Position numbers and translations under genes: made by a program
NCBI GenBank assembly: GCA_044450345.1
Contig: JBIOIY010000014.1
Span: 1-50,379, forward strand
Direction: 5' to 3'
Source of the DNA: Thermodesulfovibrionales bacterium
GTDB lineage: Bacteria; Nitrospirota; Thermodesulfovibrionia; Thermodesulfovibrionales; UBA6898
DNA length: 50,379 nt
Shown: one piece after another, positions 14,836-16,887 of the stretch
Position numbering within the stretch: the first letter of the stretch is position 1
Layout: each line of letters opens with the position of its first letter
Notes under the pieces: model-generated
Seen by the model: the letters and a program-made list of their open reading frames with translations, nothing else
Database searches by the model: none
What the model was told of the DNA's origin: nothing

Positions 14836-14861
14836 AAAGGGCTCTGTGAGGAGCCCTTTTT
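14836..14861 (+). terminator. Intrinsic terminator of the ribosomal superoperon, possibly bidirectional
   Basis: AAAGGGCTC-TGTGAG-GAGCCCTTTTT between convergent genes. Confidence 0.85.
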
Positions 14862-14953: not shown

Positions 14954-15403
14954 CTAGCCCTTCTCCAATACATACCCTCCGGTAATATAGCTTTCGAGGT
15001 CACTGATCGTGATTTTCTGCTCGGTGATGAGCGCATTAACAACGTCGCCGATGCTGATCATTCCCAGGAGACGGCCGTGATCAAGGACCGGCAGGTGCCT
15101 CATCCTTTTGGCGGTCATCAGCGCCATGCATTCCTCGATTGTCTTGTCCGGTTCTATATAGAACACAGGCGAATTCATGAGTTCGCCGACTGACGTGGCC
15201 TTTGAGGACCTTCCCTTCAATATCACCTTTCTCGCGTAGTCTCTTTCCGAGAAGACACCGACGATCTCTTCACCGACAACCACCAGCAAGGCGCCTATGT
15301 CCTTGTCTGCCATCATTTGAAGTGCGTCGTATGCGGTAGCCTGGGGCGAGATTCTCCATACGTTGCCGCCCTTGGTCTGCAACACTTTTCTTACCGTTAT
15401 CAT
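14954..15403 (-). CDS. Stand-alone CBS-pair (Bateman module) protein
   Basis: DIGALLVV...GVFSERDYARKV...RMRHLPVLD...GMISIGDVV; SD GAGGAGG. Confidence 0.93.
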   Translation of the reverse strand: MITVRKVLQTKGGNVWRISPQATAYDALQMMADKDIGALLVVVGEEIVGVFSERDYARKVILKGRSSKATSVGELMNSPVFYIEPDKTIEECMALMTAKRMRHLPVLDHGRLLGMISIGDVVNALITEQKITISDLESYITGGYVLEKG

Positions 15404-15454
15404 CGTCCTCTCCTCCTCTCTTCGTGTAAGGGTTCGTCACTTTCGTTACTCAAG

Positions 15455-15496
15455 AAAAAAAAGGCCGAACTGCGGAGGTCTTACCGCAGTCCGGTC
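15455..15496 (-). terminator. Intrinsic terminator/attenuator about 50 nt upstream of the CBS gene
   Basis: Minus strand CCGGACTGCGG-TAAGACCT-CCGCAGTTCGG (11-bp stem) then CC and T8. Confidence 0.88.
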
Positions 15497-15652
15497 CATA
15501 GATCAAGCAGTTATCCGGCTCTTATTGTTCCCTCCCCTCCTAAGGAGGTCTCTTCTTTCCGGTCCACTGCCCTCGGGTGAGAATTGCCGCTTACCTTCAC
15601 CCTGATTTACCTCAAGAACCCCAGAGTATCCGGGGGCCACCTTATGCTATTA
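15455..15652 (-). ncRNA. ~200-nt structured RNA (riboswitch-like leader or sRNA), family not recognised
   Basis: Bounded by a near-consensus promoter and a terminator; several hairpins; no ORF-track call on this strand. Confidence 0.6.
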
Positions 15653-15657
15653 ATCTA

Positions 15658-15686
15658 ACGATACTCCCCAGCCTCACTGATGTCAA
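15658..15686 (-). promoter_or_regulatory. Sigma70-type promoter driving the structured RNA and CBS gene
   Basis: Minus strand TTGACA-17 nt-TATCGT. Confidence 0.7.
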
Positions 15687-15799
15687 TTAGGTAATTTTGG
15701 TTACCAGGAAGGCTAAAGCGGACGGTTTACGGTGATCGGATGCTCGGATAGTACGCCGGGGGCCGGGTTTTGAGTTTCGTCGCGAATTAGAGAGGAAAG

Positions 15800-16381
15800 C
15801 TAAGGCGCCTTTCTTTCGTGCCGCTCCATTGAATAGAACATCGCCCCGGCCATGAGGACGACAAAGGCTATCACGACCCAGTGATTTATCCCCAAGAGCC
15901 CGGGCAAGGTTGCGGTCCCCAACCCTGATGACATGTAAAAATTCTCAATGACAGGATAGACGACCGCAAATAGCAGAGACCCCGCGATCATACCGAAAAT
16001 AGCGATTAGGGCGTCAATTCTGCCGCTTCCGAGAGCCGCGACCGCTGTGCCCGGACAATATCCAGCCACAAGGTAGCCCAGCCCAAAGAGAAATCCGCCC
16101 GCCATTTGCGGCCAGAAATAGGTGGGGACGATCCAGATCCTGCTAATATCGAGAAGTTCCAGGTCGCCTAGAAGATAGAGACCACTGGATGCTACGAGTA
16201 TGGCCGTAAACATAACCTTCGGCACGGTAAAATCCCTAAAATAAAACACGCCCGTGAGCTTGTGCGGGTTGCCGAGCCCTCCTCTTTCCAGGAACAAACC
16301 AAAGAAGAGACCCACGACCAGTGCCACGATGAGGCTGGCGCCTTCACTAAATAATCCGTATTCATAAAGAGGAGCGTTCAT
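15800..16381 (-). CDS. YeeE/YedE family sulfur-compound transporter, second half
   Basis: GLFFGLFLERGG, GGFLFGLG..VAGYCPGT; start at ATG 16381 overlapping the upstream stop (ATGA). Confidence 0.88.
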   Translation of the reverse strand: MNAPLYEYGLFSEGASLIVALVVGLFFGLFLERGGLGNPHKLTGVFYFRDFTVPKVMFTAILVASSGLYLLGDLELLDISRIWIVPTYFWPQMAGGFLFGLGYLVAGYCPGTAVAALGSGRIDALIAIFGMIAGSLLFAVVYPVIENFYMSSGLGTATLPGLLGINHWVVIAFVVLMAGAMFYSMERHERKAP

Positions 16382-16887
16382 GACCAAAGCCTCCTGAAGA
16401 TCGCGGCAAATAGAAAGCCGCTTATAAACATTGATATCACAAATACCCATCCCCCTATTGCCAACTGTGCGCCCCCCGTAAGGGCGACTCCGCTTGTACA
16501 ACCCCGCGCCAGTCTTCCCGCAAAACCCAGCAGGATGCCGCCCCCAAAGGCTGTGAATAGCCTCGTGGTGCTGCCCATGCCGGCCCCCTTGTCGAATTTA
16601 AACTTAAAATTCCTGCTGAGAAGAGACCCTGCGAATGCTCCCACCAAAAGGCCGAGTATCTCGAACACAATCCAGTCCTTAAGGGGAGAATCACCGCTGA
16701 AGTAGCGTGAAAAATACTTAAGGCTTCCTGCGTATTCCGGATTTATTCTTTCGGTGGCTACCGCAGAGACGATCGAAAACGCGCTTGATGCGCCAAGACC
16801 TTTTCCCATAATGTAAAATGCAGCGAGGAGGGTTAACCCAAGACCAATGCCCGCTAGATAGGGCGACCAGAAATTGTTCTTTTCCAT
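16378..16887 (-). CDS. YeeE/YedE family sulfur-compound transporter, first half
   Basis: WSPYLAGIGLG, LGASS, GFAGRLARGCTSG; SD AAGGAG. Confidence 0.88.
   Translation of the reverse strand: MEKNNFWSPYLAGIGLGLTLLAAFYIMGKGLGASSAFSIVSAVATERINPEYAGSLKYFSRYFSGDSPLKDWIVFEILGLLVGAFAGSLLSRNFKFKFDKGAGMGSTTRLFTAFGGGILLGFAGRLARGCTSGVALTGGAQLAIGGWVFVISMFISGFLFAAIFRRLWS

Follow-up and report, generated by a model that had tools for sequence, protein, structure and literature searches.

The window (the whole stretch of 50,379 nucleotides analysed here) harbours on its minus strand a promoter and an RNA element (15686-15455), placed ahead of a gene for a CBS-pair protein (14954..15403, 149 aa; Pfam PF00571, E = 8.5e-25; nearest solved structure 4fry_A, E = 7.7e-46) that we regard as the ancestral cis target of the element. 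The promoter is of the sigma-70 type (15658..15686, 10/12 matches) and consists of TTGACA (15686-15681), a 17-nt spacer and TATCGT (15663-15658), from whose position transcription is predicted to start at about 15657-15650; it is the sole promoter-like site found between 14800 and 16600. From just past the -10 hexamer to the end of the T-run (15455..15657) extends an RNA of approximately 200 nt, whose minimum-energy fold (-77.2 kcal/mol, z = -3.24; none of 200 dinucleotide shuffles folded as well) contains the hairpins CCCCGGA/TCTGGGG, GGGTGA/TCACCC and CCTCC/GGAGG. Its 3' end is formed by an intrinsic terminator stem-loop (15465..15494; 11 pairs, 8 of them G-C; -22.8 kcal/mol), built from two segments (C and D), and by a T8 tract (15455..15462; 7-8 T in all 11 sequences of the element collected here), which is separated from the ATG of the CBS gene (15403) by 51 nt. 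The preliminary description of this DNA, made from its letters alone, had read the locus in the same way (i.e. a TTGACA-17-TATCGT promoter, a structured RNA of ~200 nt with these three hairpins and a strong terminator some 50 nt ahead of the CBS gene), and all of these features were recovered.

Upstream, on the same strand, lies a pair of overlapping ORFs (15800-16887) that match the N-terminal and C-terminal halves of PF04143 (YeeE/YedE/TsuA-like) and may represent a split or two-piece transporter. On the other side, a hairpin (14836-14859) has the position of a bidirectional terminator common to the CBS gene and the convergent rpoA-rplQ operon, and is still there in loci devoid of the CBS gene. 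The convergent rplQ was found downstream in 8/8 genomes of the genus and in one metagenome locus (L137), and was unmatched on the short contigs of two others (L135 and L136). The YeeE-like gene lies upstream in only five of the 11 loci, and we therefore conclude that the RNA unit has its own promoter. Within the eight genomes of the genus the -35 hexamer is invariant and the -10 region is conserved as GAGTA(T/A)(C/G)GT, while an A/T-rich conserved block (GCTTTAGCC..TAAyy.AAATTAyC.yAA, 15687..15719, minus strand) abuts the -35 hexamer on its upstream side and may function as an UP element or activator site.

The element's own genome (3.19 Mb, 86 contigs, 91% complete) carries one copy only, and BLAST recovered the element from all seven other genomes of the genus and from none of 33 genomes of other genera (41 genomes in all). 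A covariance model built from the eight genus sequences only (R2) found, under strict filters and among 151 sampled genomes of the order, no further element of this kind beyond the genus, and a pattern scan of metagenomes added three further loci only; within the genus, metagenome loci included, the 11 loci score 160-218 bits. The alignment of these 11 sequences (8 genus genomes and 3 metagenome loci) is too small for a strong covariation test, within which limit 94.4% of its cells are paired (as compared to 28.6-53.8% when the 3' partners are slid by 1-3 columns), five pairs have both partners changed (20 of 500 column shuffles give at least as many) and the covariation score is attained by one shuffle in 500. 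These compensatory changes, brought to light by the homologue collection and covariation analysis that the preliminary description had proposed, are confined to two 5' hairpins (H1 and H2) and to the inner part of a long-range helix (A:B); since the remaining helices are invariant, covariation neither supports nor contradicts them. The purine-rich linkers that had been highlighted as features of the RNA do exist, yet they are its least conserved and fastest-evolving parts. At the same time, the CBS proteins differ within the genus by up to 28%, while long blocks of the RNA are invariant across the 11 sequences.

Read from its 5' end, the RNA opens with H1 (CCCCGGA-UAC-UCUGGGG, 15619..15635), which varies in sequence and length, retains its pairing (three of its seven pairs are changed on both sides) and is absent from the canonical relatives described below. 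It is followed by H2 (GGGUGA...UCACCC, 15575..15602), with a conserved outer stem and one pair changed from G-C to A-U in four of 11 sequences, and by segment A (GGCAGUGGACCGG, 15559..15571), in which GGCAG and CGG are invariant. Further downstream stand the hairpin P4 (CCUCCUU-AGGA-GGGGAGG, 15531..15548), with CCUCC and GGAGGGGAG invariant in 11/11 sequences, and segment B (AGCCGGAUAACUGC, 15507..15520), whose ACUGC pairs with GGCAG of segment A in a helix that shows one compensatory change (C-G to U-A) in its inner part. None of the segments A, B, C and D varies, and they are complementary to one another. As had been proposed from inspection, the stretch GCAGTGGACCGG / GCAGUGGACCGG (15570-15559) can engage in mutually exclusive pairings, either with 15518-15507 (-13.2 kcal/mol) or with the 5' arm of the terminator (-13.1 kcal/mol). 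Across the sequences the terminator duplex amounts to -20.6 to -27.1 kcal/mol and the alternatives to -10.4 to -14.0 (A:B), -8.3 to -13.3 (A:C) and -5.6 to -13.1 kcal/mol (B:C), so that the alternative pairings fall short of the terminator by 8-17 kcal/mol. The terminator stem is paired in 100% of its cells (11 sequences), and the sole two changes within it preserve the pairs. Moreover, the terminator still belongs to the best fold when segment A is blocked, and this persistence, together with its far greater strength, implies that the RNA should terminate without an outside factor. Folding prediction for the nascent RNA places the formation of A:B ahead of the synthesis of the terminator. A segment that must serve two partners may be unable to change its sequence, and a working switch would show the same pattern.

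Four mutually complementary segments are likewise characteristic of trp-type leaders, in which a ribosome translating a leader peptide would decide between the folds; no ORF conserved in start, frame or length was found in the eight genus sequences, and we rejected a leader-peptide attenuator as highly improbable. Inspection by eye for TRAP, ANTAR or Hfq-ARN-type repeats revealed no conserved pattern. The preliminary description had also considered an sRNA that titrates CsrA/RsmA through its many GGA motifs, and the RNA does carry nine GGA triplets in 203 nt, with AGGA in the P4 loop. The numbers observed (8-10 in eight sequences) are nevertheless close to those of dinucleotide shuffles (means 6.6-8.6; 56-251 of 500 shuffles reach the observed count), the GGA of the H1 loop is unconserved, and no match to PF02599 was detected in the 91%-complete genome, while control genomes gave one. 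With csrA not found (it could sit in the unassembled 9%) and GGA not enriched, this sponge was discarded as the least credible of the explanations considered.

At the gathering score, Rfam 15 yielded no family match anywhere in the window, in agreement with the earlier failure to place the RNA by eye in a known riboswitch family. The Rfam scan proposed at that time, when relaxed to E<=10 on 15300-15850, returned two chance-level matches only, neither of them to GEMM-I (c-di-GMP-I), and at the same threshold the seven other genus loci gave nothing relevant (no RF01051 or RF03167). The genome itself contains six canonical GEMM-I riboswitches over the RF01051 cut-off (C23:37545-37620, C10:24148-24228, C25:39764-39840, C3:10235-10310, C43:3586-3662 and C66:5359-5435), and even at E<=1 the element is not among its RF01051 matches. 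These six riboswitches, together with 20 GGDEF-domain matches, indicate that c-di-GMP signalling is active in this genome.

The connection to GEMM-I emerged when R2 was applied to 54 genomes from the family. Beyond the genus loci it matched 12 places at 23.6-42 bits (in five other genera and at a second locus of one genus member), of which 11 are RF01051 or RF03167 (c-di-GMP-I-GGC) at gathering score and the twelfth (L022) is RF03167 below threshold (23.1 bits); one of the matched loci (L024) holds a second element besides these 12 places. By these assignments, a model trained on the genus only appears to retrieve GEMM-I riboswitches and nothing else. Three of the places (L021, L022 and L023) immediately precede a CBS-gene orthologue, and two of these (L021 and L023) are canonical GEMM-I. 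In addition, 80 loci that encode CBS-protein relatives were retrieved, and an Rfam scan of 20 of these (18 labelled Nitrospirota/Thermodesulfovibrionales and 2 others) detected GEMM-I in seven; in six loci (L070, L087, L095, L100, L101 and L108) the riboswitch ends 76-130 nt ahead of the CBS start. The promoters of the CBS-linked riboswitches are alike (..aatagaaTTTGACA-17-TATAGAT, followed by TTAAT). A reverse model (R3), built from ten CBS-linked GEMM-I leaders including their terminators, matched eight of the 11 elements in collinear and correctly placed fashion at 11-21 bits (the window's own element, here G000, reaches 16.8 bits, with E = 0.0015 over the 44 kb searched), and in the other three (L005, L006 and L008) it matched the terminator only, at ~10 bits. 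It is very probable, in our view, that a CBS-linked GEMM-I riboswitch gave rise to the element, which has since left that family; the element escapes Rfam entirely, and this descent becomes apparent only through synteny and intermediate sequences. Of the novel attenuator put forward at the outset, the conserved promoter-to-terminator RNA stands, while its standing as an unrelated new class gives way to a probable origin from GEMM-I in front of an orthologous CBS gene. The suggested link to the adenosyl ligands of CBS pairs found no support, the ancestral ligand being c-di-GMP.

Degenerate forms of such leaders occur ahead of CBS orthologues elsewhere in the phylum. Four of them (L053, L054, L061 and L113) score 39.5-55.1 bits with R3, have lost P1/J1 or P1b or have a shortened P2, and keep the terminator; a fifth (L131, 1330-1450, in the genus genome G004) was judged by eye to be a degenerate GEMM-I leader and gave no R3 match at E<=10. 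L061 possesses a 5' extension of ~110 nt that has short motifs in common with the element (AGCAUAAGG, GGGGUUCUU and CUCACCC), and in spite of these it is not matched by R2; indeed R2 aligned none of L053, L054, L061 and L131 to the genus-specific 5' domain (L113 was outside the R2 search). A search of the literature brought up no report of CBS-linked or remodelled GEMM-I in Nitrospirota, nor one of the widespread ~145-aa CBS-pair protein as what these loci suggest it to be, a recurrent c-di-GMP-regulated gene of this phylum.

The GEMM-I loci gathered in the course of this comparison display several further regularities. Blocks resembling the A/T-rich one at 15687..15719 are also found upstream of other GEMM-I promoters, and a form of it fused to the -35 hexamer (CTAAAGTTAYAAnTTGACA) is common to riboswitches of several genera (L017, L018, L019, L020, L021, L026 and L027, as well as L031 and L034 of the element's own genome), which points to an UP element or activator site shared across the c-di-GMP riboswitch regulon. 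A hairpin (GGGGAUGAGC-nnnn-GCUCAU) recurs 10-40 nt past the GEMM-I terminator, ahead of genes for secreted proteins (L018, L020, both copies of L024, L027 and L034), and related GEMM-I copies lie near genes for multihaem cytochromes and secreted proteins. L024 carries two GEMM-I riboswitches with terminators (1501-1664 and 2279-2455), ~780 nt apart and with no convincing ORF between them. In L070, a CRISPR repeat (2434-2470; RF01322, at threshold) lies ~800 nt downstream of the CBS orthologue.

Relative to this ancestry, three parts of the riboswitch were kept (i.e. the P1b hairpin, the CCGG remnant of the 5' strand of P2 and the terminator). P4 aligns to canonical P1b in both directions of the comparison and would be its remnant, CCGG of segment B would be what is left of the P2 5' strand, and the CCGG half of segment A occupies the expected place of the 5' strand of P1. 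Among the ligand contacts that are named for GEMM-I in the source are G20, A47 and C92, which lie in junctions (PMC5888326). As far as these contacts go, the sites equivalent to G20 and A47 would fall in the linkers that flank P4 (15549-15558 and 15521-15530), which are unconserved in sequence and length across the 11 sequences; a C92-like C (in ACUGC-GG) is invariant but inside the terminator stem. In the R3 alignment of G000, non-equivalent residues stand at the contacts and the lower stem of P1a is non-canonical. Of P2 only the palindromic CCGG core persists, its outer pairs being broken by one-sided changes in 6/11 sequences. In GEMM-I, a GNRA tetraloop on P1b docks into a receptor in P2; the P4 loop is GNRA-compatible (GGGA) in five sequences and AGGA in six, and P2 is too remodelled for its receptor to be recognised. 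From the variable linkers, the altered P1a stem and the broken P2 pairs we infer that the binding of c-di-GMP has been lost. The gains comprise ~60 nt at the 5' end, with H1 and H2, and the GGCAG/CUGCC helix (A:B), which reaches from the 5' flank to the former P2 loop, encloses P4, and is new in both its halves (GGCAG of segment A and ACUGC of segment B). This helix competes with, and would lock out, the ancestral antiterminator.

The tabulation of downstream genes, also among the checks proposed at the outset, placed the CBS gene behind the RNA, ~50 nt away and on the same strand, in nine of the 11 loci, while promoter, RNA and terminator are kept in all of them. In the two exceptions the gene is deleted: in G004 by a 469-bp deletion (window 15376-14908) with collinear flanks, and on the metagenome contig L137 by a deletion that corresponds to window 15422-14915. 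L137 groups with G000 (96.6% identity in the element; on the rplQ side, 95% to G000 vs 82% to G004) and the 5' breakpoints of the two deletions differ by 46 nt, so the losses are independent. A comparison of G000 with G004 gives identities of 88% (179/203) for the RNA, 82% for the promoter block, 71% for the leader and 47% for the adjacent intergenic DNA; the Shine-Dalgarno sequence in the leader of G004 has decayed, and its genome encodes elsewhere a CBS paralogue (54% identical) behind another GEMM-I remnant, the L131 leader mentioned above. Each CBS-less lineage has a single change in the terminator, with the pair preserved. From this comparison the RNA appears to be maintained independently of the downstream gene, in two of 11 loci; its retention in L137 says little, on account of the closeness of this locus to G000 (95-97% identity). 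The stand-alone sRNA that had been offered as an alternative thereby gains real support.

A gene loss of this kind could also point to a decaying relic, in which function is gone, promoter and terminator survive and the RNA has no role. The degenerate CBS-linked leaders found elsewhere in the phylum (L053, L054, L061, L113 and L131), taken with the CBS gene losses, might signify that selection on the entire unit has relaxed. We deem such decay very unlikely: the RNA is far better preserved than the neutral intergenic DNA beside it (88% vs 47%), its long blocks are invariant in 11 sequences though the CBS proteins differ by up to 28%, the pairing of H1 and H2 is kept by means of compensatory changes, and both the 5' extension and the A:B helix were added rather than lost.

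A co-directional CBS gene ~50 nt behind the RNA, as in nine of the 11 loci, gives the RNA the look of a purely cis-acting leader. The element could therefore still be a riboswitch or attenuator of this gene and nothing else, in which the 5' domain (H1, H2 and segment A) or the reshaped GEMM-like core would bind an effector (c-di-GMP bound in an altered pocket, some other nucleotide signal or an RNA-binding protein) and the binding would free or stabilise the antiterminator A:C or B:C. The ancestor was itself a cis-acting ON switch whose aptamer 3' strand (P2/P1), as in the canonical relatives, is the 5' arm of the terminator; the conservation of the gene at this distance, the invariance and mutual complementarity of segments A-D (as two-partner switch segments should have), the active c-di-GMP signalling and the GNRA-compatible P4 loop of five sequences are all in keeping with such a role. 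It is harder to reconcile with the lack of conserved junction nucleotides at the would-be GEMM-I pocket, with Rfam scores devoid of a relevant match even at E<=10, with antiterminators 8-17 kcal/mol weaker than the terminator, with a P2 remnant in decay and with an RNA that is retained where nothing lies downstream to be regulated. On balance, we regard an exclusively cis-acting element as possible but rather unlikely.

Three metatranscriptome runs from two studies contain one short contig each (15460-15621, 162 nt; 15464-15614, 151 nt; 15426-15605, 180 nt) and nothing else on 15100-15900; together these contigs lie within the element and 29 nt of its leader, and differ from the window mostly in the variable linkers, with one difference in the P4 loop. 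They are low-depth assemblies whose ends and strand are not resolvable and in which DNA carry-over is possible, and hence amount to a weak hint only of an abundant small transcript from the element; by the same token, the uncovered CBS and YeeE genes are not evidence of silence. Terminated leaders accumulate in the case of ordinary riboswitches as well. One DNA run covers the flanks of the element, and the DNA runs that contain this stretch derive from peat, soil and river metagenomes.

The reading that we favour, and to which we would give an even chance, is one of termination by default, with an RNA of ~200 nt that is kept for its own sake and, possibly, a residual gating of the CBS gene. 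In this scheme the A:B helix would shut out the ancestral antiterminator and the RNA would, in consequence, terminate by default at the T8 tract in vivo; the terminated RNA would accumulate as a small RNA, and occasional read-through may still serve the CBS gene in those loci that possess it. The RNA bears the hallmarks of an sRNA as judged from its predicted transcript ends (a promoter of its own plus a U-tailed Rho-independent terminator, both in 11/11 loci), and Hfq is encoded in the genome. The terminated RNA, we believe, would have a function of its own in trans, as a riboswitch exapted into an sRNA that would probably depend on Hfq. More tentatively, and with somewhat less than even confidence, we propose that the element is an exapted second-messenger riboswitch that lost its c-di-GMP pocket, then gained a lock-out helix along with a new 5' domain, and became either a trans-acting sRNA that outlived its cis target or a new class of attenuator with a sensor in its 5' domain.

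In wider terms, the element illustrates that a riboswitch can drift far from its family model while under selection. If the terminated RNA acts in trans, the locus would document a route from cis riboswitch to sRNA, in which the canonical, the degenerate and the remodelled form all precede the same orthologous gene within a single phylum; if the exaptation is true, the intermediates retained by sister genera would make it a traceable natural case of a riboswitch becoming a different regulator. Should the element have remained a switch, its additional 5' domain would represent a novel sensor.

Among known systems, GEMM-I itself (RF01051/RF03167) is the closest, as it lies between a similar promoter and an orthologous CBS gene, has a homologous P1b, shares the CCGG of P2 and is connected to the element by a weak reciprocal match. 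The element departs from it by variable junctions, a lost lower stem of P1a (in G000), ~60 additional nucleotides at the 5' end, a new helix and an Rfam score that does not reach even E<=10, as well as by its persistence without a downstream gene in two of 11 loci. The degenerate leaders (L053/L054, L061, L113 and L131) precede the same gene family and contain the same remnants of aptamer and terminator, but R3 still gives four of them 40-55 bits, and they are shorter, with the exception of the long leader of L061. Riboswitch variants whose specificity has shifted, among them GEMM-Ib (3'3'-cGAMP) and variants of the guanine, FMN and guanidine classes, likewise re-use a known aptamer scaffold after changes in the binding site; these changes concern a few pocket nucleotides and leave the fold and the model score intact, whereas the element has unconserved junctions and a rebuilt architecture. 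Finally, SreA and SreB of Listeria are SAM riboswitches that act on prfA. They are terminated leaders that keep ligand binding and are still members of their class, whereas the aptamer of the element seems lost; what they have in common with it is the accumulation of a terminated riboswitch leader with a role of its own, as we propose for the element.
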